Source: Escherichia coli (GTDB lineage Bacteria; Pseudomonadota; Gammaproteobacteria; Enterobacterales; Enterobacteriaceae). Taken from it: a stretch of 64,000 nt of DNA. The DNA is taken from NCBI RefSeq assembly GCF_024223415.1, contig NZ_CP100500.1. One strand, 5' to 3'. Under the pieces are notes generated by a model. It saw only the letters and a list, made by a program, of their open reading frames with translations, was not told where the DNA came from and did not search any database. The position numbers were made by a program, and so were the translations under genes. Position 1 is the first letter of the stretch, and each line of letters begins with the position of its first letter. Below, piece after piece: positions 1,807-49,650 of this stretch.

Positions 1807-3389
1807 TGTGAAAATATTAAATTTATATTACATTTTAATTATCGACAAAAAACACATAAAGAAATCTAAAGGGAATGAGCGTCAAATGAGCTGATATAGC
1901 GCCAGTTTGGTATGGTCATGTGATTTGATGATTAAAGCTTACGGATAATAACACTCCTCTGTGAGCCATATAAATGAGCATGCCATAATCGTCAGTTCAG
2001 AGATAAAACTGACTGAATGATCTTATGTTATAGTAAGCAGTGTTTACCGGATACGATGACTTATCTCTCTCACATCATATGGATTCACTTTCATGGGGTA
2101 AAGCGATGGGACTACAGACGCTGATTATGATGGTTTGCTGTAAAGTTAGCACAAGTTTTTGCTGTACAGAATACGGAGTAAGAAAAATAATTCCAGAGTA
2201 AATCTGCTCTGCTTTTGAACAGAAAAGATTCATGCTTACCGTGAAAAACTGAAACCAACATTCAGTCTGCATGGATGTCTTAAGATGTTGAGAATGTCGG
2301 ATATGGTATTATATACACCTTTTCCATTAGGTCCTTTTATGTTTTCATTAAGTCGTTTTGTATGTATTCCTCCAGTGATTCATTAGTGCCTGTTTACGCA
2401 TTTACACACTTTTCCCATTAATCTCCTTTAAATGTGTTTCATTACGCATTGCTGTACACATTTTTGAACTGATACACATCCAAGTTAGTAAACCTGTCAG
2501 TTCTGATTTTACGTTAACTAAATCAGTTTAATGCTGCTGTAAAACAATCCTTCCTGTTTAAGCAATCAATCTGCTATTCGATTTTACTGATGTGACGTTT
2601 AACCTTTCCTGAGCTTTGGTTGTTTGTGGTTTTTGGTTTGTGTTTCGACGTTAAGCTGAGAAAAGTATCTTTACGCTAAATCAACCCGAACTTTCCTGAG
2701 GTGATCTGACGTTCTTTTCGATGTGCTTACGACGATTCTGTTAAACGACTTTCTGGATGTTTTGATAACAATCAGATTGAGGCATTAACGATTCCTGACG
2801 TTTTGCTTTTTCATGTAAGGTCATTGTTTTCGTCATGATGTGGTTTTTCTTCTTGCATTGCGAAAGTGTGATGATTGGTTTTGGTTTTTTGATTCAGATG
2901 AGATTTACGTTATCGATGGTTAATCGTTTTTATGGTGAGTAGTGAAACGTAACATTTTCGGGATGAGAAAATCGATTCTGATGGTGATGGGGATGATCGT
3001 GTTACGGCGTTATCTGTAAACAGGTTTTAAACGTGTCATTCGCATTCGTGATTGAGTTGTGTGATTAAGCTGTAGGTTTTGGCGTTGTTGTTGATTTGCA
3101 TTGCCAGGAAGCGTTCTGGTTGCGTTTCTGGTGTTTTGTTCGAATGTTCTGTGGATCCTTTTCCCTTCAGGCTTTTCTCGTCGTCCATGTCGTTTTTAAA
3201 TCCATTCATGCTGTTGTTGCGTGTTTTGCTGCTGTGTGCAGGATTATCTTTTCGTTCCGGGATGGTTTGTTCCGTTTCAATCACTCTTAATCAGAGAGTT
3301 GTAGCATTGCTTAATGACATGATGCCGTAAAGTTTTACCGCGGTGATTAATGATGTGAAGTCAATCCAAATCAACGGAGATCTCTCATC

Positions 3390-4121
3390 ATGAATCAACC
3401 AATACACAATGCTTACTGGTTATCCCGTTTTGACAGCCTTCTCGACAGTGCCCTGTCGCAGCACCGTGCCGTCTCGTTAATCCGGGTGGATTTACGTTTC
3501 CCTGAGTATATGCCTGTCACCATCATGGATCCCGATCCGGATTCAGCGGTGATTTCTCGTTTTTTCGAATCCCTGAAAGCCAAAATCCAGGCTTACCAGC
3601 GGAAAAAACGACGTGCCAACAAGCGTGTGCGTGCAACCACTCTGCGTTATTTCTGGTGTCGGGAGTTTGGCAAGGAAAAAGGCAGGAAACATTATCACGT
3701 GATATTGCTGCTCAACAAAGATACCTGGTGCTCGCCAGGGGATTTCAGCGAACCATCTTCGCTGGCGACGATGATCCTGGAGGCATGGTGCAGCGCCCTG
3801 CATCTTGAGGCCTGGCAGGGTAATGGACTGGTTCATTTTTCCAGGCGGACGCCTTTCCGTAAACCGACATCATCTGATGCTCGCCCTTCTTCCGATGATA
3901 CGCCTTTGTCGGGTGGATGTTCTGATACCAGGAAGGCTTCAGACAAAAAGCCGGGTGAAGCCGCTGTTCTCTGGATCAAGCGTGGTGATGTGGCAGCGAT
4001 GCAGAAAGCCCGGAAAAGAGCCCGTTATCTCGTGAAAAATCAAACGAAGCAGCATAATGGTTCCGGTCAACGTAATTATGGTTGCAGCCGTGGGCCGGGG
4101 CGTCTGCTGGATGGCAGGTGA
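3390..4121 (+). CDS. inovirus Gp2-family protein (YagK/YfjJ-like)
   Basis: 243 aa ORF MNQPIHNAYWLSRFDSLLDSAL...RVDLRFPEY...HYHVILLLNKD, pattern of YfjJ/YagK island proteins; preceded by conserved upstream motif. Confidence 0.65.
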   Translation: MNQPIHNAYWLSRFDSLLDSALSQHRAVSLIRVDLRFPEYMPVTIMDPDPDSAVISRFFESLKAKIQAYQRKKRRANKRVRATTLRYFWCREFGKEKGRKHYHVILLLNKDTWCSPGDFSEPSSLATMILEAWCSALHLEAWQGNGLVHFSRRTPFRKPTSSDARPSSDDTPLSGGCSDTRKASDKKPGEAAVLWIKRGDVAAMQKARKRARYLVKNQTKQHNGSGQRNYGCSRGPGRLLDGR

Positions 4122-4631
4122 AGTCTGTAAAACGGTATCCGGTGCCAGGGGGGGGATATCACGGTAAGGGCGTCAGCCAACGTCTTTCGCTCGTATTCTG
4201 ATAACCCGTCCTGAAGTCATGTATCTGCTTCCATTCTCATGTTCATATTTCTCTTACGCTTTCACTGTCTGTCATCGGAAGTACCGATTTATTTTGGTGC
4301 TGCGCACTTACGGCCATTCACGGAAGAGGATTGTGGTGAACAGTAGGAGTCTGGCTGCTGGCGAGGGAAGGTTCAGGACTGGTATGGGGTTTAGTGCTGG
4401 AGGATGACTTTGAATCCCGGATTGACCAGTGAGGGGGCAGTGAGAGGATGCTCTGGTGTAACAGGTCTGGATTACAAAATATAAAACCGGTTGTACACTC
4501 GTAACGGGTAAAAGGATACGGGCAATAACACGTGGTACCCGGTGAGACTGGCTCTTGTATCACATTACCGGGAATATTCTGGCAGGTGAAATGTTCTGAT
4601 AAGAATCATCCTGAGGGAGGATACAACGGAT

Positions 4632-6241: not shown

Positions 6242-6487
6242 TCACGTAACAAGCAGCTACAGGTAAATTAGCTGAGCATGCATCCATCATTTGTCGCTGC
6301 GATGCCAGACTTCCGGATGCTCATATGTTGTTTTACTTTTGTCAGCATAAATGCTGCGTCGGGACTGGTGAATGGAGATAAGCCATTTTATTATCGACGT
6401 CAGAGAACATACTCACAATGTCGGTATGTTTCTGAAATTAAGGGTAAGTTTTGCGCTGATTACAGTATGCGAAGGAGATCTGGCACA

Positions 6488-8080
6488 ATGAATCCCGCTT
6501 ATATGCAATCCCCCCATTTCCCGGCAGATTTAACATACAGATTATTTCCTCGTAAGCTTGCGTATCTCATTGACGACTTATATGAAAGTACCCAACTTCC
6601 GCTGGATCTCATTTTTAATACTGTACTGGCAACGCTCTCACTCTCCTGTCAGTCATTGGTTGACGTTGTTCATCCTCACACCAACATGCCGGAACCCTGC
6701 TCACTTTATCTGTTGACAATCGCAGAGCCAGGCGCGGGAAAAACAACGATAAACAGACTGGTGATGAACCCCTGTTACGACTTTGCCGATCGACTCATTC
6801 AACAATACGAAGAGAGAAACAAAGATTATAAAACTGAACTACAGATCTGGAATACCCGACAGAAAGCTCTTTCTGCCAGTTTAAGAAAGGCTATTAACCG
6901 GGGGTATCCGGGAGAACAGGAAGAAGAGGCGCTGCGTAATCACGAAAGAAATAAACCGACACGTCCGGTTCGACCGAATTTTATCTATGAAGATGTTTCA
7001 CTTAAAGCGCTTGTGGAAGGACTCAACGAGCATCCGGAGGCGGGAGTTATTTCTGATGAAGCGGTAACTTTTTTCAGAAGCTATCTGAAAAATAGTCCTG
7101 GTCTGTTGAATAAAGCATGGAGTGGACAACCGTTTGATTTTGGACGGGCTGACGAGAAATATCATATCACTCCACGCCTGACATTTTCGCTAATGTCCCA
7201 ACCGGATGTTTTTACGGCTTATATAAATAAAAATGATGTACTGGCCAGGGGAAGCGGATTTCTTTCCCGGTTTCTGTTCAGTCAGGTTGTAAGTTCTTCC
7301 TGGATACGTGATTATACGAGAGGTGAGTTCAGAACAATACCAACCCTGGAGAATTTTCATAAAAAGATTAACGGATTTCTGTTAAGCCATAACATTAATT
7401 CCCCCGGCATGAGCACCGAAAGGAAGACATTAAAACTTGCGAAGAAAGCGTTGGGGGAGTGGCAGGAAAACCAGAGTAAGATTGAAAGCAAAGCGCTTGC
7501 AGGAGGGGAGTGGGAACACATCAGAGATATTGTTCTGAAAGCAGGTTCTAATATACTGAGGATAGCGGGTTTATTCACCTTCTATGGCAATAAAGATGCT
7601 GAGGAAATTGAATCAATTGCGCTTTTTAACGCCATGCATCTCATGGACTGGTATCTGGAGGAGGCAAGCGCAATATTTTATCCCATGTCTGAGCGACGCC
7701 AGTTTGAGCAGGATGCCTGTGAACTGTATGCATGGATTATGACCCGAATCAGGCAGAATAACTGGTGTGCTATCAGGAAAACAGATATTGAAAGATATGG
7801 TCCCAATCGACTGAGAAGAGCAGAAAAGCTTACACCTGTACTCAATCAGTTAATTGCTCAGAATTATTTCTGTATCATCAAAATGCGCTCGCATCAGGCA
7901 CTTTATGTTTCTGTTCGTAACAATAATGGTTACCTCCTTCCTTTCGGCACAATGTCTTACGAACCGTTTGATGTTGTACCCTCCTTGTATAGTCATAATG
8001 CGAAAATATATCCCGTTAATATTCCACCGGAATTAATCCAGTCATTTGCGTTACCTTTTTCAGCCTATAACTTATTCTGA
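6488..8080 (+). CDS. DUF3987-type protein (YfjI-like, primase C-terminal-like) with P-loop-like AEPGAGKTT
   Basis: ORF with IAEPGAGKTT motif; family recognised by similarity to YfjI of CP4-57-type islands; start at MNPAYMQ chosen over upstream 6278 start. Confidence 0.6.
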   Translation: MNPAYMQSPHFPADLTYRLFPRKLAYLIDDLYESTQLPLDLIFNTVLATLSLSCQSLVDVVHPHTNMPEPCSLYLLTIAEPGAGKTTINRLVMNPCYDFADRLIQQYEERNKDYKTELQIWNTRQKALSASLRKAINRGYPGEQEEEALRNHERNKPTRPVRPNFIYEDVSLKALVEGLNEHPEAGVISDEAVTFFRSYLKNSPGLLNKAWSGQPFDFGRADEKYHITPRLTFSLMSQPDVFTAYINKNDVLARGSGFLSRFLFSQVVSSSWIRDYTRGEFRTIPTLENFHKKINGFLLSHNINSPGMSTERKTLKLAKKALGEWQENQSKIESKALAGGEWEHIRDIVLKAGSNILRIAGLFTFYGNKDAEEIESIALFNAMHLMDWYLEEASAIFYPMSERRQFEQDACELYAWIMTRIRQNNWCAIRKTDIERYGPNRLRRAEKLTPVLNQLIAQNYFCIIKMRSHQALYVSVRNNNGYLLPFGTMSYEPFDVVPSLYSHNAKIYPVNIPPELIQSFALPFSAYNLF

Positions 8081-8860
8081 AATAAACCAACACAGATGAA
8101 ACGAAAAAAAACAACATTCATTCGAAGGTTGGTGGTAAGGAGTTTGCATATCCTGCATCTGTGCAAATATTCACCAGTTATGGGGCGCGAACGAAAATTT
8201 CTCTGAAAAAATCGCTACGGTAGCAACAGTAGCAGCACATGCACCATGTCTGTTATTTGATTTTGTTTTCATAATGACCTGTTGTCAAAGCTGATTGAAT
8301 ACAGGAGTGTGCGCACTGGTGGAAGAGTGGCTTTCGTTTTTGGTTATTCGAAAGAAAATCGAAATATTGTTTTTAACATAGCTGAAGCTAATCATATAAC
8401 CATATTTTTTGAGTTTTTATATATAACTTTGTTTGATTCTTGTCGTAATGAGTGCTGGCGTATATGACGATGTCGCTCTCTTTCTGAATAACGAAAGGTT
8501 ATCAGTCTTTTACTGACAAGAGATGCTGTTCAGGTTTCAATGGGAGATTGAAGAAAAACGATTTGATATTTTCCGTGAGAGAATGTCTTGTCAGGTTCAT
8601 ATTCATAACGGATAATTTCTTATTTTCACTCATCAGACATGGATAATTTTAATTTAGGTTTATTACTATAATTAGTATCTGTTCCTTTATTTTTATCCAT
8701 CTATCCCTTTATTTTTCATCTATCTATCCTTTTATTATTAGTATCTGTATTTTTATTATTGGCATCTGTCTATTTATTTTTATCATTCTCTCCTCTCTGT
8801 CTTTACTCTCATTGCTCTTACTCTCATTCTGTTATTTCTACTCGTGTTATCGTGTTCACT

Positions 8861-8940
8861 CTATCACTCTATCACTCTATCACTCTATCACTCTATCACT
8901 CTATCACTCTATCACTCTATCACTCTATCACTCTATCACT
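8861..8940. repeat. octanucleotide microsatellite (CTATCACT) x10 perfect copies, with degenerate CT-rich flanks 8681-8950
   Basis: Counted directly: 10 head-to-tail copies of ctatcact from 8861 to 8940, 11th copy degenerate (ctatccat). Confidence 0.95.
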
Positions 8941-9689
8941 CTATCCATCTCTCAATCATAACGATTGTCACTCATATGATACTCAGCCATGTTATTTTCT
9001 ACTGCTCTGCTGAGCTTATCTGTCTGTTCTCATCTTCAGTGAAACAGCACCTGATTTTACTCTTATCCATCATGAACTGTCTTTGTTCAACGATGATGGT
9101 ATGTCTGATATGTGTTAACCATTTTGATGGGTATCGTTGATTATCCGATGGTTAAGCTTCGATAAGGTTATCCATAGAACAGTGTGGGGTAAGCAACATG
9201 ATCCCTGATGATATTTGTTCCGTGTTGTCTTGTTGTTTAAGCGACAGGAAATATGTCAATGGCATGTTTTATTCTGCTGCCGTGAGCCATGCATGTTCTG
9301 AAGAACAGATTGAATGAGCGCATGTGAGTTTATTACGTTGGCCTTGTACACGTTTTTTTAGAACCACTGAGAGCAAGTTTGTAGTTTATGATGCTATTGG
9401 TCGTAATATGTTTCTTGAACTTTTGATCGTGGGTTTTTATCTCGTATTTTTCAGCATTTCTCGGTGTTGTATTGCGTCGATATTTTCTTTATTCCCGTTA
9501 ATATCATCTCGTCAGTGTCCATTCCTTTCATCACAATGCGTATCGTTAATAATCTGTTGTATCCATCCGCCTACAGCATGCCTGATAAATACCGTCTGTC
9601 AGTTATTACCGTTTTAGATCTGATTATGAGCGAAGGTATTCATTCGCTGACAGAACTTAAAACGTCATTAACTTACAGGAGTTATCAGC

Positions 9690-10259
9690 ATGCCTCAGTC
9701 TTACACACCAGACTGGTTTTTTACCGCCTTACTTGACCATCACATCGATCAAATGATGGCTCGCTATTCCTGTCTGCGGGCCTTACGGATGGATTTCTTC
9801 TACAGGAAAGAGACGCCTGATTTCTTACAACCTGATCACCGCTGGCTTGAATTGCAGTTGCGTATGCTGCTGGACCAGGTTGAACGGTTTGAAAATATGG
9901 TTGGTTTCTTCTGGGTGATTGAATGGACGGCTGATCATGGTTTTCATGCGCATGTGGTTTTCTGGATCGATCGTCAGAGGGTGAAAAAATATATCCCTTT
10001 GCGGAGCGGATAACCGAATGCTGGCGGGCTATTACGTATAACTGTGGTTCGGCGCACCGCTGTACATACCAGCCGCATTATGCATACAACATCAACATTC
10101 CCGTGCGCCACAACGATCCTGAAAGCATCGATAATATTCGCGGTGCCCTGCATTATCTGGCGAAAGAAGAGCAAAAAGACGGACTGTGTGCATACGGCTG
10201 CAGCGAAGTGCCTGAACGTCCTGCTGCAGGGCGACCACGCAAGCTTCACGTCTGAAGCT
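9690..10259 (+). pseudogene. inovirus Gp2-family gene, frameshifted
   Basis: N-terminal 107 aa ORF (…FWVIEWTADHGFHAHVVFWIDRQ…) stops at 10013; family-like continuation (ITYNCGSAHRCTYQPHYAYNINIPV...ALHYLAKEEQ) runs in a different frame to 10259. Confidence 0.55.
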
Positions 10260-10493
10260 TAAACCCTGAACCTCCGCACCTGGAAACAAGCCATCGGTAA
10301 AAACTTACCGCATTGCTTAATGATGTGAACCGAAGTCAACGGAGTTCATTCACCCTGAATGTTCTTTCCTGATATTCCCGCTCAGCGTCGGTTCTTCACC
10401 TGTTCCATCAACCTCATCCGCAGCCTGTAACCCGTCAGCCCATCCATCCCCGGGCAGGACGCGTTGTGGGCTGCGCATAACGGAGCATATCCT

Positions 10494-38815: not shown

Positions 38816-39430
38816 TCAGCCAGCAAGCGCCAGTGGCGCTTCCGGCCAGCTGATTTCAGGTGCCTTGCTGATATCCAGTGCGTTCAGATCGTCGATATAA
38901 TCCAGCACGGCATTCAGTTTTGCCGTTTCTTCTGGTGTCAGACTGCGACCTGCCCGCAACTTAAGGTTGATGAGGTCGATGGACTTCATCGCCTGATCCA
39001 CCCGTTCCTGGCGTTGCTGTCTGGCAACCTCCAGCTCTTCGGCTTGCTGCCGTTCTGTATCGGTTACCCACGCCTCACCGTTCCAGGTATCCCATGGTGT
39101 GGCAGGCTGTTTTGTCGTTGTCCCTTCCGGGTAGTCACCTGGTTGGGTAATCTGGACCGGATTACCGTTCTCTGTGCTGTATACCGTCTCTCCACGATGA
39201 TCGGGGACATACTCCCACCCGTCCAGCGTGGACGTCCGGCAAATCACGTAACCCGGCATTGCCTCTGGCGGGGCATCGGCGCATGAATGTGCCGGGGTAC
39301 CCACCCCCAGGGCCAGATACTCCACAGAGGATGAGGTGTATTCCCGGGTTTCCTCATCATAGTGATATACAGTGATATCGCCTGCGAAAGTGGCGATACC
39401 GTTTTCATCCAGAACTGCAGTGTTACTCAT
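38816..39430 (-). CDS. phage tail fiber assembly protein (Tfa, Mu U-like)
   Basis: 204 aa immediately downstream of tail fiber gene with ATGA-type overlap; typical Tfa position. Confidence 0.7.
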   Translation of the reverse strand: MSNTAVLDENGIATFAGDITVYHYDEETREYTSSSVEYLALGVGTPAHSCADAPPEAMPGYVICRTSTLDGWEYVPDHRGETVYSTENGNPVQITQPGDYPEGTTTKQPATPWDTWNGEAWVTDTERQQAEELEVARQQRQERVDQAMKSIDLINLKLRAGRSLTPEETAKLNAVLDYIDDLNALDISKAPEISWPEAPLALAG

Positions 39431-41274
39431 TAAACTGCCCTCACAATATAATTAAAAGCGATATTGCGCGGTCTGATCGCTATCCATCTGTCTTTTTCAT
39501 TACTCACCAGCTTACCGGCTCTGGCTATTGCCCATCTGTCAACTGGTTTTGTGCCGTACAGGATGCCGTTACCGGTTCTGGGTTGATCAGGGGTTATGTT
39601 TATGATGTCGTTATCATGTGATGCAAATGAAATCCCTGCCTGAATATCTGCACCTCCCGCTACGCCGTGGTACGCCTGTATGGAGGTACAAATATATGTT
39701 GCTTCCTGTGTGGATAACAATAAGCGTCCCCTGTCAATCATTCGCAGGTCATCCCATCCACGAATAAATTCCCCGCGCAAATCTGGTAGCCTGAGGTCAG
39801 GGTAGGCCACCGCCAGTTTTGGGTATTTTGTACGCGTGAATGCGGCACCGTTGCACTGTAACCACCCCTCAGGTGGTCTTGACGAAGGCCACGGAACGGG
39901 TACGCCAACTGGCAGCGTCGAGCCTTCTCCTAAACCAAGGTAATCAAGAATATCTTTTATGCTTTGTTTACCCATGATGACGCGGGCAACAGACGAAAAA
40001 ACAGGGGCGTCTGTGATCTGAGCCCAGCGATGAGTGTGGGCTGCCGAGGCTTTGCTGTTGGCAAGGTCATACGCAGCTTTAACAGCTTTTGGTGTGGCCG
40101 CCAGCATTTCGGAATTGCTGTTTGTGGCGCTGCTTAGCTGTACGATGCCTTTGCGTCCGGTGGTTGCATCCTGTCCTGTATACTTGCTCGTCAGCATATC
40201 GTGTAAGGCTTTAACCGCTTTGGGGGTGGCGGCCTCAGTCTCTGACTCACTGTTTGTGGCACTGCTCAGCTGTACGGTGCCTTTTGCCGTCAGCGAGGCT
40301 GATGGCACACCTGTTATCTGATTCCACGGGTGGGTGTGGCTGGCGGGTGCTTTACCGGCTGCAAGGTCATATGCAGCCTTGACGGCTTTTGGTGTGGCCG
40401 CCAGCGTTTCGGAATTGCTGTTTGTGGCGCTGCTCAGCTGTACGATGCCTTTGCGTCCGGTGGTTGCATCCTGTCCTGTATACTTGCTCGTCACCATATC
40501 GTGTAAGGCTTTAACCGCTTTGGGGGTGGCGGCCTCAGTCTCTGACTCACTGTTTGTGGCACTGCTCAGCTGTACGGTGCCTTTTGCCGTCAGCGAGGCT
40601 GATGGCACACCTGTTATCTGATTCCACGGGTGGGTGTGGCTGGCGGGTGCTTTACCGGCTGCAAGGTCATATGCAGCCTTGACGGCTTTTGGTGTGGCCG
40701 CCAGCGTTTCGGAATTGCTGTTTGTGGCGCTGCTCAGCTGTACGATGCCTTTGCGTCCGGTGGTTGCATCCTGTCCTGTATACTTGCTCGTCACCATATC
40801 GTGTAAGGCTTTAACCGCTTTGGGGGTGGCGGCCTCAGTCTCTGACTCACTGTTTGTGGCACTGCTCAGCTGTACGGTGCCTTTTGCCGTCAGCGAGGCT
40901 GATGGCACACCTGTTATCTGATTCCACGGGTGGGTGTGGCTGGCGGGTGCTTTACCGGCTGCAAGGTCATATGCAGCCTTGACGGCCTTCGGTGTGGCGG
41001 CCAGTGTTTCAGAAGTGCTGTTTGTGGCGCTGCTCAGTTGGGTGAATCCTTTTTCTGTCAGTGTCGCGTCAGGGTGGTTACGGGAACGTGCGTGTTCAGC
41101 CAGTGACTGTGCGACTTCCTCCGTTTTCTTCTTCAGCCATTTCGTCCTGTTTGCCAGTTGCCGGGGGGCTCGATTTGATATCCCGTCTGCACCACCCAGA
41201 ACCGGATCTGATGTCTCCAGTTGATAGATATTTTCTTCCCACTTTTCTGTTTCATTCAGGTTTCCCATAATCAA
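39430..41274 (-). CDS. phage tail fiber protein (Mu S-like) with internal 100-aa tandem repeats and C-terminal tail-collar-like domain
   Basis: 614 aa; repeated block …GTVQLSSATNSESETEAATPKAVKA…; C-terminal …PDLRGEFIRGWDD… collar-like motif. Confidence 0.8.
   Translation of the reverse strand: MIMGNLNETEKWEENIYQLETSDPVLGGADGISNRAPRQLANRTKWLKKKTEEVAQSLAEHARSRNHPDATLTEKGFTQLSSATNSTSETLAATPKAVKAAYDLAAGKAPASHTHPWNQITGVPSASLTAKGTVQLSSATNSESETEAATPKAVKALHDMVTSKYTGQDATTGRKGIVQLSSATNSNSETLAATPKAVKAAYDLAAGKAPASHTHPWNQITGVPSASLTAKGTVQLSSATNSESETEAATPKAVKALHDMVTSKYTGQDATTGRKGIVQLSSATNSNSETLAATPKAVKAAYDLAAGKAPASHTHPWNQITGVPSASLTAKGTVQLSSATNSESETEAATPKAVKALHDMLTSKYTGQDATTGRKGIVQLSSATNSNSEMLAATPKAVKAAYDLANSKASAAHTHRWAQITDAPVFSSVARVIMGKQSIKDILDYLGLGEGSTLPVGVPVPWPSSRPPEGWLQCNGAAFTRTKYPKLAVAYPDLRLPDLRGEFIRGWDDLRMIDRGRLLLSTQEATYICTSIQAYHGVAGGADIQAGISFASHDNDIINITPDQPRTGNGILYGTKPVDRWAIARAGKLVSNEKDRWIAIRPRNIAFNYIVRAV
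40021..41045. repeat. 300-bp tandem repeat, about 3.4 copies, inside tail fiber gene
   Basis: Rows 40321-40620 and 40621-40920 are identical as read; 40021-40320 near-identical; plus-strand shadow ORFs recur at 300-bp spacing (40034, 40334, 40634, 40934). Confidence 0.85.
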
Positions 41275-45221: not shown

Positions 45222-46102
45222 ACACTCCTCGTCAGTATTCTGGCGGCCATTGCACTTAATCGCGGAGACATGCGGTTGAATGCTGTGCCGGCGGCGTTAA
45301 GCTGCCCGGAAACGGTATCCAGAGCACCTGCAATATTTCTTTTGTCCACACCACTCAGCGCAGACTGTGCCTGCTGTATATACGTGGCTGCTTCGCTGGC
45401 TGTTCTGGCCAGACTGATGGCATCGGGCATGGATTCAGAGAGTGCATTAAATGCCGGCACACTTTTCCCCAGAGCGCCGGATATATTACCCAGTCCGCTC
45501 ATCAGTCCCGGCACACGGGTCAGCGCGACAACGGGGTTATCCTTCATTTTCTGCGCCACCCGAACGGCACTGATGGTGGTCTGGAGTACAGACTGCGCCT
45601 GTTTCGCATAGTTGACACCGTTGCGGATGAACTGTGCCCCCCCGGAAGGCGATGGAACGGCACCAGATACGGCCCCGGCACCGGGAACCTGCCTGCGTAT
45701 TGCCGGTGGTTTCAGGGGATTCTTCGGGTCACCGGTGTATTCCCGGAGAGACACGGTTGCGCTGACAGCCAGTACGTTGCCGGTACTGTCAGTCTGCTCG
45801 CTGGTTGCAGTCACATCGGTAATCACGAACCAGGCGCGATAGTCACCGTTGCCGAAGACCAGCGCCAGTGCCTGATGGGCTTTCATGGCTGCCCGAAGTC
45901 TCGCCAGCTCCACGTCGGGCACACAATAATGCTGATGGAAGACCAGACTTATCTGGATTTCGTCCAGCCTGTCGCCGACGAACTGCAGACCGGGCTTACT
46001 CCCGATGCGGGCATGCTCCGCATAATCGACGCCAGACGTGGCCTCGAAGCCGTCCCAGTAGGTAATCAGCTCAAACTCAATATCACCCAGTACGGCAAAC
46101 AT
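45218..46102 (-). CDS. phage tail protein U-like / DNA circulation protein (Mu gp43-like)
   Basis: 294 aa directly downstream of tape measure gene; N-terminus MFAVLGDIEFELITY… gpU-like. Confidence 0.6.
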   Translation of the reverse strand: MFAVLGDIEFELITYWDGFEATSGVDYAEHARIGSKPGLQFVGDRLDEIQISLVFHQHYCVPDVELARLRAAMKAHQALALVFGNGDYRAWFVITDVTATSEQTDSTGNVLAVSATVSLREYTGDPKNPLKPPAIRRQVPGAGAVSGAVPSPSGGAQFIRNGVNYAKQAQSVLQTTISAVRVAQKMKDNPVVALTRVPGLMSGLGNISGALGKSVPAFNALSESMPDAISLARTASEAATYIQQAQSALSGVDKRNIAGALDTVSGQLNAAGTAFNRMSPRLSAMAARILTRSV

Positions 46103-49100
46103 CAGCGGTACTCCTTACGTTGTTTCTGAGCCAGCAGACGCTCCAGCATTTTTTCCAGCTCATGCAGACTCATATTCAGGGCACCAGTCAGTCCTGCAGG
46201 CGCTGTGGTTTCCCTGCCATTGAGGAAAAACTGAGGATTAAAGCTGACCTGGATACCACCAGACGTTCCACCGCCGGTTGCAGCTGCACCACGGCCTGAA
46301 TATCCGGCAGCCAGGATTTCAGGCGAGGGGATACGGGGAATATCCGGTGCCATCTCATTTGCCAGACGTTGCCCTGGTAAAATCGATGCCCGGGTGGAGA
46401 GCGGAATAGCGGGCATGGAAGACAAACTATTGATTACGGCTCCGATCGCATTTTTAGCAGACGACATAAACCCATTGATATCGGGCAACGGCATACTGAA
46501 GCGAACACCTGAAGTGTTATCCCGTATTTCTGGCCCCTGAATGCTCACGGGCATTTTGGGGAGCAGTTCACTGGCCATTCGCTGCCCGGCCAGAGCTGCA
46601 AGCGGAGTAGTCCGCTGCAGGCCAATGGCGGCCCCCTGCGCGATATTGTCGCCAAAGACCATAAACACGCGGCTCGGCGAATGAATGCCCAGCTTTTCGC
46701 TGAACCAGCCACTGATGCTGTCACCCATTCCGGTTACACTGGATTTGAGCGACTCCCATTTGTTTTTGATACCGTTAATCAGACCATCGACAAGATGGCC
46801 ACCGAAGTCGGTAAACTTTGCCGGCAGATCAACACCAAGATATTTCATCGCAGCTGCAAAGGCTTTATAGAGCAGACCTGCCGGCGACCAGTTAATCAGC
46901 AACTTACCAGTTCCCACAATGCCGCCGTTAAAGGCTTCCTGAATGTCAGCCCAGCACTGTTTAAACCAGCTACTGATGCTGTCACCCATTCCGGTTACAC
47001 TGGATTTGAGCGACCCCCATTTGTTTTTGATACCGTTAATCAGACCGTCGACAAGATGGCCACCGAAGTCGGTGAACTTTGCCGGCAGAGCAACGCCGAA
47101 ATATTTCAGCGCAGCTGCAAAGGCTTTATAGAGCAGGCCTGCCGGCGACCAGTTAATCAGCAACTTACCAGTTCCCACAATGCCGCCGTTAAAGGCTTCC
47201 TGAATGTCAGCCCAGCACTGTTTAAACCAGCTACTGATGCTGTCACCCATTCCGGTTACACTGGATTTGAGCGACCCCCATTTGTTTTTGATACCGTTAA
47301 TCAGACCGTCGACAAGATGGCCACCGAAGTCGGTGAACTTTGCCGGCAGAGCAACGCCGAAATATTTCAGCGCAGCTGCAAAGGCTTTATAGAGCAGGCC
47401 TGCCGGCGACCAGTTAATCAGCAACTTACCAGTTCCCACAATGCCGCCGTTAAAGGCTTCCTGAATGTCAGCCCAGCACTGTTTAAACCAGCTACTGATG
47501 CTGTCACCCATTCCGGTTACACTGGATTTGAGCGACCCCCATTTGTTTTTGATACCGTTAATCAGACCGTCGATAAGATGGCCACCGAAGTCGGTGAACT
47601 TTGCCGGCAGAGCAACGCCGAAATATTTCAGCGCAGCTGCAAAGGCTTTATAGAGCAGACCTGCCGGCGACCAGTTAATCAGCAGCTTACCAGTTCCCGC
47701 GATACCGCCGTTAAAGGCTTCCTGAATGTCAGCCCAGCGCTGTTTAAACCAGCCACTGACTGCCCCCCAGTTGCGGTAGATAAGGTAAGCTGCTGCCGCG
47801 ACAGCGGTGATAACGAGACCGATGGGATTCATCATCAGCGCCCGGCCAATCCAGAGAACGGCACGCCCGGCGATCATAATGCCGCGAACCAGTCCCCCGG
47901 AGAGCACACCACCCAGTGTTCTGACTCCTCTGGCGACGGCACCAAAGCCGGTCACCAACCAGCGAAGCTTACCGCCTTCCCCCAGTGCAAGCGTCAGACG
48001 AAGCCAGTTGGTCCGGAGTAAAACAGCAGTTTTCCAGACGTTCACAAAGGGGGAAATAAGGAGATTCAGCCCCAGTTTGAGACCAATAGTCGCTATCTTA
48101 ATCGCAAGGAGCGCACTGATGAGCTTAAAAGCCCCACTGACAAATTGCGGGTGAGTCGCCACCCAGTGTTTTGCCCCCTGAATGACTGGGATCAGCTCCT
48201 GAGTCAGAGAAATAAAAGAAGGGGCGAGCTGATCGCCCAGCGTAATAGCCAGATCGCGACTGCTGACCATAAGCGCTTTAGTGGCTTCAAGGGGAGATTT
48301 CAGCCGCTGATCGTAAGCACTGGCAAGCAAATCGTTATCCGCAGCCCTGAGAGCACCGGCACGGATCTCGCGATATCTGTCCATGTTGGCCAGCATCGGG
48401 CGGATAAATGCCATGACCTGCATATCCGCGAACATATCGCCCAGACCAAAGTTTTTCGCCAGAGCCTGAAGTGCCTCATCTCTTGCCGTATCATTCTTTA
48501 TTTTCATGGCGGATTTGAAGCCGGCCAGCGCTTCGGGGCTTTTGGCATTGAGGTAACGTTCTATAACACTCAACATCCCTTCAATCGGAGAGATCCCCGC
48601 AGCCTTATAACTCGCAACAGAACCCTGCAAATCAATACCCAGATCAGCAAACTGTTTCTGAGTATCGCGGGCAAAAATTTTGGTAAGAAAGTTTTTAAAA
48701 TTATTGGCTGCTTCGTCGGTGGAGCCCGCACCGATTTTTGCTACCTGGAGACTGGCCCCGATTTCAGCAACAGCCTCTTTTCCACTGGCAATACCCGCCA
48801 TCATTGGGGCCAGGGACTGCATCCACTTGACCTGATCCGGGATTTCAAATGACCCCTGGTCACCGGCATAAGCCATAATATTCTGGACGGCACTAAAATC
48901 TCTGGCGGCACCTTTCAGGGAGTTTTGCCAGACTGCGGCCACTTTTGCCCAGTCCTGAGATGACGTGCGTGTTGCCGTTGCCGCGCGGGCAATATCCGGC
49001 ATCAGAAAACCGATATCTGACAAGTTATCAATATTGTCGCTGATGAGCGAACCCACCGCCTCCTGCAGTTCATCCTGATACTGATTGTATTTTAGCGCCC

Positions 49101-49575
49101 AGCCTTTTATCTGTCCGGCAAGTGCATCCCGCGTTTTATTGTCATATTTTGCGGTGATCGACATATCAATCATTTTGTCCTGAAAAGACATGGACTGCTG
49201 AACGGCAGGGGAAACCGTATGATAAACAGTCTGTGCCATGCCATACGCTTCAATCCCCTGACCATACAGCGCCATGCGGTTAGCTTTCAGCGCATCACTG
49301 GTGGCTGATGCCGCTGACAGACGGCGCTGCTGGCGCTCAATTTGCTCCATGGTGCGGCTTACCCGCAGCAGCTCGCTGTTGAGATGCTGCATCCGGGAAG
49401 AGCCCAGTTGACCATAACGTTCTGTTGCACGGGTTAAAGCGTTCTGACGTTCCTGCAGGCGGCGTGAGGTATCGCTCAGGGAATCAAGCGCACGGCGGGT
49501 ACCGCTCATTGCAGAACGGAATGTGCTGCCAATCATCCCGCCGATAACAACGCCGACTGAAAACTGTCCCGACAT
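46102..49575 (-). CDS. tail tape measure protein with 87-aa internal tandem repeats
   Basis: 1158 aa from ATG 49573-49575 (GGAGG RBS 8 nt upstream); coiled-coil N-terminus, TM-like segments, repeats WFKQCWADIQEAFNGGIVGTGKLLINW…. Confidence 0.85.
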   Translation of the reverse strand: MSGQFSVGVVIGGMIGSTFRSAMSGTRRALDSLSDTSRRLQERQNALTRATERYGQLGSSRMQHLNSELLRVSRTMEQIERQQRRLSAASATSDALKANRMALYGQGIEAYGMAQTVYHTVSPAVQQSMSFQDKMIDMSITAKYDNKTRDALAGQIKGWALKYNQYQDELQEAVGSLISDNIDNLSDIGFLMPDIARAATATRTSSQDWAKVAAVWQNSLKGAARDFSAVQNIMAYAGDQGSFEIPDQVKWMQSLAPMMAGIASGKEAVAEIGASLQVAKIGAGSTDEAANNFKNFLTKIFARDTQKQFADLGIDLQGSVASYKAAGISPIEGMLSVIERYLNAKSPEALAGFKSAMKIKNDTARDEALQALAKNFGLGDMFADMQVMAFIRPMLANMDRYREIRAGALRAADNDLLASAYDQRLKSPLEATKALMVSSRDLAITLGDQLAPSFISLTQELIPVIQGAKHWVATHPQFVSGAFKLISALLAIKIATIGLKLGLNLLISPFVNVWKTAVLLRTNWLRLTLALGEGGKLRWLVTGFGAVARGVRTLGGVLSGGLVRGIMIAGRAVLWIGRALMMNPIGLVITAVAAAAYLIYRNWGAVSGWFKQRWADIQEAFNGGIAGTGKLLINWSPAGLLYKAFAAALKYFGVALPAKFTDFGGHLIDGLINGIKNKWGSLKSSVTGMGDSISSWFKQCWADIQEAFNGGIVGTGKLLINWSPAGLLYKAFAAALKYFGVALPAKFTDFGGHLVDGLINGIKNKWGSLKSSVTGMGDSISSWFKQCWADIQEAFNGGIVGTGKLLINWSPAGLLYKAFAAALKYFGVALPAKFTDFGGHLVDGLINGIKNKWGSLKSSVTGMGDSISSWFKQCWADIQEAFNGGIVGTGKLLINWSPAGLLYKAFAAAMKYLGVDLPAKFTDFGGHLVDGLINGIKNKWESLKSSVTGMGDSISGWFSEKLGIHSPSRVFMVFGDNIAQGAAIGLQRTTPLAALAGQRMASELLPKMPVSIQGPEIRDNTSGVRFSMPLPDINGFMSSAKNAIGAVINSLSSMPAIPLSTRASILPGQRLANEMAPDIPRIPSPEILAAGYSGRGAAATGGGTSGGIQVSFNPQFFLNGRETTAPAGLTGALNMSLHELEKMLERLLAQKQRKEYR
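46700..47760. repeat. 261-bp tandem repeat, about 4 copies, inside tape measure gene
   Basis: Near-identical 87-aa protein repeats; plus-strand shadow ORFs recur at 258-261 bp spacing (46685, 46943, 47204, 47465). Confidence 0.8.
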
Positions 49576-49650
49576 AGTGGTTAACCTCCGGGGAAGGTGA
49601 AAAGACGTGAGGGGATAACGCAGAACAGCCGCCACTGGCGGCTGTCTGTA

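Follow-up and report, generated by a model that had tools for sequence, protein, structure and literature searches.

A hypermutable octanucleotide repeat array in the yfjI–yfjJ-type spacer of a CP4-57-like Escherichia coli island

The spacer and its flanking genes

The window, i.e. the whole stretch of 64 kb that was analysed, includes a CP4-57-like E. coli island in which yfjI- and yfjJ-type genes flank a long spacer. The remainder is E. coli DNA, e.g. an inositol-utilisation cluster with 99.3% identity to chicken isolates. No tRNA genes were found in the window and therefore, no attachment site could be placed. The genes and repeat features lie on the + strand of the window. The upstream gene (6278-8080, the longest ORF from 6278; the start annotated in E. 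coli GF60 corresponds to 6488) encodes a DUF3987 protein (Pfam, E 2e-75) and its relatives are annotated as “YfjI family”. DUF3987 proteins are predicted to act as helicases in the replication of mobile elements (PMC5862659). The downstream YagK/YfjJ (‘inovirus-type Gp2’) gene (9690-10262) matches REP_ORF2-G2P and YagK_YfjJ_C. In the window, it is frameshifted with A6 instead of A7 at 9984-9989, which results in a product of 107 aa. An intact gene (188 aa) is present in 17 out of 19 genomes with the array-bearing spacer allele. In GCA_900482235, it is frameshifted as in the window, and both carry ten repeat units.

Between these genes lies a spacer of 1.6 kb (8081-9689). It was matched in 1565 out of 5426 complete E. 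coli genomes (about 29%), and the closest of these 1565 matches aligned as two pieces, leaving out the centre, with ~84% identity over ~64% of the query. The fetched loci contained a YfjI-family gene on one side and a YagK/YfjJ gene on the other. The spacer is non-coding. Among six diverged alleles, an excess of third-position substitutions was seen in both flanking genes and no periodicity between 7866 and 9690. Six spacer ORFs (43-98 aa) had no family match in PHROG and NCBIfam. Rfam gave no match in the window at gathering thresholds and, with permissive E-values, only sub-threshold matches at chance level within 7900-9800. Three + strand frames are open at the repeat array (ORFs 8759-9013, 8812-8961 and 8844-9140). 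A coding reading of the array was nevertheless ruled out by the absence of an ATG and a Shine-Dalgarno sequence, of codon periodicity and of any family match, and by unit numbers across genomes that occupy all three frame phases.

Several elements of the spacer are conserved. A 44-nt anchor block, CATGGATAATTTTAATTTAGGTTTATTACTATAATTAGTATCT (8637-8680), is the same in four aligned alleles, and others retain its core. It includes a perfect TATAAT and begins a hypervariable section that is rich in C and poor in G. Such a tract (1-5 G vs 9-19 C per 50 nt) was present in all nine spacer alleles examined, with differing sequences and at a constant offset from the anchor. TATCCAT is the top recurring 7-mer and was found in six of seven spacer alleles at conserved positions. 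The spacer contains six of these boxes compared to 0.34 expected, and none of 2000 simulations reached six. The invariant anchor and the TATCCAT boxes are probably functional. A poly-T run at 9353-9359, which counts seven residues (T7) in the window and eight (T8) in other genomes, adds a second polymorphism of the slippage type. The last ~120 nt upstream of the Gp2 ATG are almost invariant across ten alleles. This proximal leader begins more than 600 nt 3′ of the array, and its predicted fold covers the Shine-Dalgarno sequence and the start region. The gene would thus have a control region of its own at this distance downstream of the array. With its invariant anchor, TATCCAT boxes and ultra-conserved proximal leader, the widespread and unannotated spacer may be a more interesting object for follow-up than the array itself.

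The yfjI-yfjJ gap of CP4-57 in E. coli K-12 measures 152 bp and has no similarity to the spacer. A comparable gap is also absent from the annotated CP4-6 yagK region of K-12, as judged from its annotation. Since K-12 lacks a comparable spacer, its transcript and Rho maps could not be used here. No sequence similarity to the array spacer was observed for a second ORF-free gap of 1.6 kb located upstream of another Gp2-family gene. Canonical DnaA boxes (TTATCCACA, up to one mismatch) were not enriched in the window (17 vs 13.2 expected). The searchable literature held nothing functional on the yfjI-yfjJ spacer.

The repeat array and its variation among genomes

Ten perfect tandem copies of CTATCACT are located at 8861-8940, 776 nt past the yfjI stop and 745 nt before the start codon of the Gp2-like gene. 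TRF reported the array at 8856-8945 in the register TCACTCTA with a period of 8, 11.2 copies, 100% matches, no indels and a score of 180. A pattern search counted CTATCACT exactly ten times in the 64-kb window, all contiguous at 8861-8940 and none outside. In dinucleotide-preserving shuffles, it occurred 1.3 times on average and none of 100 shuffles reached ten. With 11.2 copies and 100% identity, the array has the purity of a VNTR or hypermutable simple sequence repeat (SSR). It is bordered by GTTATCGTGTTCACT on the left (8846-8860), which is kept in alleles with zero copies, and by CTATCCATCTCTCAATC on the right (8941-8957). The right flank includes a TATCCAT box and its zero-copy counterpart is CCATCCATCCCTCAATC. 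Degenerate AT-rich repeats specific to the array allele lie upstream at 8676-8786, namely, a 23-bp repeat (x2.9, 8676-8740) and a 21-bp repeat (x2.7, 8730-8786) as determined by TRF. Between 8600 and 9000, the GC skew ranges from -0.4 to -0.7 and the GC content falls to 0.245. The sequence-only reading had described ten perfect 8-bp units with a degenerate low-complexity flank, located between a DUF3987 gene and a Gp2 gene. The pattern search and TRF confirmed the units, the neighbouring repeats and skewed composition the nature of the flank, and the family matches on either side the position.

The stretch from 8780 to 8960 is C-rich, G-poor and unstructured, with 60 C, 7 G and 45 YC dinucleotides in 181 nt. 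Within the whole 64 kb and on both strands, the strongest 78-nt C>G window is the array (30 C, no G). The run without G extends over 108 nt in the window (ten units) compared to 60 nt in GF60 (four units). No secondary structure is predicted for the array as RNA or ssDNA (MFE 0 kcal/mol), and the fold of 581 nt around it was no better than those of shuffled sequences (z = -0.82). As the most extreme unstructured C>G stretch of the window, the array resembles a Rho-loading site in composition, an observation that speaks against neutrality.

Further assemblies with the array allele were gathered by exact-sequence look-up of four flanking proteins. Among 19 genomes in total, the number of units was 2 in one genome, 3 in four, 4 in four, 6 in three, 7 in one, 8 in one, 9 in three and 10 in two, with under-counting possible in some draft short-read assemblies; SRA/Logan k-mer contigs were left out of the counts as they break at the array. 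All length differences were exact multiples of 8 and the unit sequence was always perfect. The immediate flank of 3.7 kb contained just 10 variable alignment columns among the 19 genomes. Unit counts partly track the flank haplotype. Still, eight genomes with an identical 3.7-kb haplotype had 2, 3, 4, 4, 7, 8, 9 and 9 units. The distance from the anchor to the array was 202 nt in all 16 loci measured (14 genomes), the 21- and 23-bp repeats thus being invariant in length. The array lies within the spacer that carries the conserved motifs and its length shifts their spacing by up to 64 bp, which is a further observation against neutrality.

GF60, isolated from chicken meat, is the sole complete RefSeq genome with the spacer allele of the window and contains four units. 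Both sequences are collinear over 12.4 kb. Seven changes in total were found between 4256 and 15699 (11.4 kb): a gap of 48 bp (six units), a difference of one residue in the poly-T run, another of one residue in the A-run of the Gp2 gene and four SNPs.

Whole-unit variation among close isolates hence outpaces point mutation, as is typical of a VNTR. From a stepwise-mutation variance of 7.3 and a Watterson’s theta of ~5e-4/site for the flanks, the mutation rate of the array was estimated to exceed the per-base rate ~1e4-fold, which is a rough order-of-magnitude value from a non-random genome sample. The base-substitution rate of E. coli is about 2e-10; on this assumption, the array would mutate at ~1e-6 to 1e-5 per generation. 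The data support a hypermutable SSR/VNTR of the slipped-strand type because unit numbers differ from 2 to 10 among genomes, including those with identical flanks. The copy-number comparison across isolates that the sequence-only reading had suggested therefore agrees with one half of its contingency-locus claim, the hypermutable repeat. The other half, a switch acting through promoter spacing or the leader, found no such agreement, as no promoter-like site spans the array and the gene starts 745 nt away. The array could still be part of a long leader.

Origin of the array in one allele lineage

In the zero-copy alleles L024, L025 and L028, the site of the array is occupied by GTTATCGTGTTCACTCCATCCATCCCTCAATCATAAC. 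The proto-sequence with zero copies reads TCACTCCATCCATCC, and slightly diverged forms were found in L052 and L055. The array allele is laid out as GTTATCGTGTTCACT(CTATCACT)nCTATCCATCTCTCAATCATAAC. Other spacer alleles have unrelated CT-rich sequence and no tandem array. Altogether, the array was absent from all other spacer alleles examined (L002, L003, L024-L028, L052, L055 and L058). The tract of a contingency locus is expected to be maintained across alleles; this array was found in only one allele lineage. Being missing from all other examined alleles of a widespread spacer, it has not been maintained as a regulatory feature.

The array-bearing sequence was not found outside this lineage either. 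A pattern of flank plus unit had no match in 100,044 species-representative genomes and none in JGI metagenomes. A three-unit pattern was present in 17 genome contigs and 3 viral contigs of unrelated taxa and with unrelated flanks, and these were dismissed as independent microsatellites of CTATCACT. The phage collection gave no near match, and the plasmid collection gave four partial matches (≤61% of the query), none with the array-bearing allele. The repeat sequence was not found in the searchable literature. The array is a previously undescribed VNTR locus and belongs to a known type of element.

Comparison of the zero-copy and array alleles indicates that a near-duplicated TCACTC(T/C)ATC motif gave rise to the array once and in one allele lineage only. 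The proto-repeat would be the left flank (8846-8860) joined to the right flank, from which the array grew. In one allele, a chance near-duplication may have turned TCACTC-CATCCATCC into TCACTCTA-TCCATCTC. The duplicated unit would then have been expanded by slippage to a perfect head-to-tail array.

Neutral drift, regulation or replication

The array is fairly likely to be a young, lineage-specific octanucleotide VNTR that drifts neutrally, and not an evolved switch. Its variation is explained most simply by replication slippage, through which whole 8-bp units would be gained and lost far more quickly than nearby point mutations accrue. Slippage fits since only whole units change and only the perfect array varies, while its degenerate neighbours do not, and also since two homopolymers of the same region vary (T7/T8 at 9353-9359 and A6/A7 at 9984-9989). 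In E. coli, MutS-dependent mismatch repair covers loops of no more than about 4 nt. Slippage loops of 8 nt would escape it, and the array would thus be unstable even where repair is proficient. From the absence of evidence for a selected function, we infer that the length variation has little or none. The array would then be a neutral, hypervariable marker within a low-complexity section of the spacer that evolves fast.

Unit differences could also have been produced during assembly or sequencing by collapse or expansion of the repeat. The Logan contigs L047-L049 start inside or just past the array, and one Logan contig had 2 units on the frameshifted haplotype that otherwise has 10. An artefact is highly improbable, however, given that four assemblies with contigs of 5.3-5.8 Mb and the window by themselves gave 3, 4, 6, 9 and 10 perfect units. 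Moreover, ordinary Illumina reads are longer than the array (up to 90 bp), and the differences are exact multiples of 8 with counts that partly follow flank haplotypes. A promoter-spacing contingency locus, in which a change in units would alter the distance or helical phase of elements and turn a neighbouring gene ON or OFF, is very unlikely and, in any case, less likely than a neutral VNTR. It would suit a hypermutable, intergenic array with a unit that is not a multiple of 3. In addition, TATCCAT boxes, which may bind proteins, recur on either side of the array, and a promoter-like TTGGCA-16-TATCAT on the + strand ends 70 bp 5′ of it. Nevertheless, no -35/-10 pair straddles the array. The two promoter-like matches on the + strand of the spacer (8588-8616 and 8759-8786) are both upstream of it, and the spacer contains fewer promoter-like matches than shuffled sequence (4 vs a mean of 7.4). 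The start codon is distant (745 nt), every other spacer allele does without the array, and the broad spread from 2 to 10 units with partial haplotype tracking is expected of a drifting VNTR and not of a two-state switch. The neighbours are helicase-like and Rep-like and not the usual surface or restriction-modification genes of contingency loci. The presumed target, the Rep_ORF2/G2P-YagK/YfjJ gene, is itself frameshifted in the ten-unit lineage, namely in the window and GCA_900482235.

A graded effect on transcription was considered as well. If transcribed rightwards, the region 8780-8960 is a candidate Rho-loading (rut) region as judged by its composition: it is C-rich, G-poor, unstructured and untranslated over the ~70-80 nt or more expected of a rut site. 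The array could be such a site or extend it, so that more units would lead to more premature termination of an untranslated transcript from yfjI or the anchor and fewer transcripts would reach the YfjJ-like gene and the alpA module, in the manner of a graded, heritable and reversible dial. Such a rheostat is rather unlikely. The 78-nt C>G maximum, the G-free run that lengthens with the units and the predicted lack of any structure are all consistent with it. Furthermore, the + strand has no intrinsic terminator-like site from the yfjI stop to 9461, and composition, not sequence, is kept at one anchor offset in nine alleles. There is also a precedent for an SSR in a 5′ UTR, in hmw of H. influenzae, whose length sets expression inversely to the repeat number (PMC12721329). 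On the other hand, the flanking CT-rich DNA provides a C>G tract even in alleles without the array, which makes the array unnecessary, and the bias could have arisen by mutation, without selection, from low complexity that is driven by slippage. The hmw mechanism requires a hairpin containing the repeats, which is absent here (z = -0.8). Moreover, the gene is separated from the array by a weak terminator-like site and by the proximal leader with its separate conservation, and the target is already a pseudogene in the ten-unit lineage. It is less probable still that the array serves as a heritable and reversible dial within a conserved cis-acting region of CP4-57-like islands. This region would combine the C-rich, G-poor tract with the TATCCAT boxes and the invariant anchor, and a longer Rho-loading tract or re-spaced boxes would set the transcription or replication initiation that passes from the helicase module to the YfjJ/AlpA module. 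The spacer might, finally, be a replication origin of the island with the 8-bp units as iteron-type binding sites of YfjI or YfjJ. Its location 3′ of a predicted DUF3987 helicase gene and 5′ of a Rep_ORF2/G2P-like gene would fit an origin, as would the adjoining AT-rich minimum (GC 0.245) with 21-23-bp degenerate direct repeats and the TATCCAT boxes that recur at conserved positions. The left flank TGTTCACT is also similar to TGTTCACC, the type I iteron of P4. For the array itself, an iteron role is highly improbable, as sister alleles lack both the array and the 21/23-bp repeats despite conserved flanking genes. Functional iterons are not expected to vary freely from 2 to 10 copies, and contiguous 8-bp units are not helically phased. 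CTATCACT is found nowhere else in the window, and it is TATCCAT, not the array unit, that recurs as a conserved motif in the spacer.

The preferred explanation, a neutrally drifting VNTR, agrees with the features of bacterial VNTR/MLVA-type loci: a perfect, non-coding array of short units that differs by whole units, partly tracks lineages and has stable degenerate neighbouring repeats. It differs from MLVA-type loci in its 8-bp unit and its confinement to one allele of an island that is present in some strains. SSRs of 6-9 nt are rarely reported according to PMC4692102. The 7-bp (ATCTTTC)n repeats in the promoter/5′ UTR of H. influenzae hmw1A/hmw2A, the nearest case studied by experiment for the rheostat, are similar with respect to the non-triplet, pyrimidine-rich unit of 7-8 bp upstream of a gene and the wide range of copies among natural isolates. 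Expression of hmw drops with rising repeat number, and the transcribed repeats belong to a long hairpin that has a G-rich arm and is cleaved by RNase III (PMC12721329). The array, in contrast, has no predicted structure at all and does not make use of a complementary purine-rich arm; a hairpin of the hmw type was rejected as the array is unpaired (fold z = -0.82). Its distance of 745 nt to the start codon and its lack of conservation across alleles are further differences to hmw. Like two distal-promoter SSR switches, the TAAA tract of N. meningitidis nadA and the poly-T rheostat of H. pylori sabA, the array is an SSR outside a core promoter whose length would space putative protein-binding sites. 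Those tracts are close to the regulated promoter (PMC2791445, PMC4081817) and are maintained across strains, whereas the array is restricted to one lineage. Short direct repeats and an AT-rich tract 3′ of a replication-helicase-like gene are shared with the type I octamers of P4 alpha and the SaPI ori. The alpha protein of P4 binds octamer iterons, and SaPIs have short iterons 3′ of rep. Unlike these, the array consists of contiguous, perfect units whose number varies freely, and sister alleles lack it.

The array is useful as a marker for high-resolution typing of one E. coli island lineage. It also provides a natural example of how an octanucleotide microsatellite is born and drifts rapidly in an enterobacterium proficient in mismatch repair. 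Phase variation in E. coli is classically ascribed to DNA inversion and Dam methylation, and to our knowledge, switching driven by SSRs is hardly documented in this species. If the unit number tuned expression or replication of the island, the array would be of greater importance as an E. coli example of phase variation or of a rheostat based on SSRs.

Conserved elements in the spacer

The 1.6-kb non-coding spacer (8081-9689) between the DUF3987/YfjI and the YfjJ/Gp2-like genes contained six TATCCAT boxes compared with 0.34 expected, namely at 8639-8646 (minus strand), 8693-8700, 8942-8948, 9063-9070, 9168-9175 and 9560-9566. Their offsets were conserved in all spacer alleles. The sequence TTATCCAT occurred four times in the 64-kb window and all copies were located within the 540 bp surrounding the array of 8-bp units. 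The boxes may be protein-binding sites; canonical DnaA boxes were not enriched.

A 44-nt block at 8637-8680 (CATGGATAATTTTAATTTAGGTTTATTACTATAATTAGTATCT), which includes a perfect TATAAT, was identical between alleles that elsewhere share only ~84% identity, and it directly precedes the hypervariable section, which is rich in C and poor in G. The site at 8214-8236 (GCTACGGTAGCAACAGTAGCAGC) combines a small palindrome (GCTAC-G-GTAGC) with a 9-bp direct repeat. It was invariant across the four aligned alleles and could be operator-like.

In one SRA-derived contig (L047, from SRR19977217), array units at positions 1-60 lacked one C (CACTTATCACT). These units point either to an allele in which the array is interrupted or to noise in the reads or the assembly.

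Leader and frameshift of the YfjJ/Gp2-like gene

Among ten diverged alleles, the ~120 nt directly 5' of the Gp2-like start codon (window 9575-9700) were nearly invariant. This stretch is predicted by folding to form a long hairpin taking in the Shine-Dalgarno sequence and the start region, and there was no covariation to assess because the sequence did not vary. The leader also contains the direct repeat CAGCATGCCT at 9574 and 9686 as well as an upstream ORF of 52 codons, which starts with the ATG at 9578 and overlaps the start of the Gp2-like gene.

The gene itself is frameshifted in the window by a homopolymer difference (A6 versus A7 at 9984-9989), resulting in a product of 107 aa. The identical truncated product was found in GCA_900482235, the other genome with ten array units, and in five SRA-derived contigs; a sequencing error is therefore not the explanation, and the frameshift is a true variant of this lineage. 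The poly-T run at 9353-9359 was polymorphic as well, with T7 in the window and T8 in seven other genomes, and its length tracked the flank haplotype.

Variation and repeats outside the spacer

Two tandem repeats elsewhere in the window were both long and near-perfect: 300 bp x3.3 (98%) at 40061-41037, inside the minus-strand ORF 39430-41274 (614 aa), and 261 bp x4.0 (97%) at 46703-47759, inside the minus-strand ORF 46102-49635 (1177 aa). These ORFs appear to sit in a block of minus-strand genes.

The final ~70 codons of the DUF3987/YfjI gene (7866-8080) were hypervariable between alleles and had lost third-position periodicity; this C-terminus is either evolving fast or replaced between alleles. 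The other Gp2-family gene (3390-4121) is likewise preceded by a stretch of ~1.6 kb without ORFs (1807-3389), and no sequence similarity was found between this second gap and the spacer. Compared with GF60, a complete E. coli genome with the same spacer allele, the window differed by 66 SNPs at 3324-4255, 65 of them at 3324-4064, which marks a divergent patch over this first Gp2 gene. Downstream of the patch, the two sequences were nearly identical. The juxtaposition of divergence and near-identity thus suggests a recombination boundary where they adjoin.
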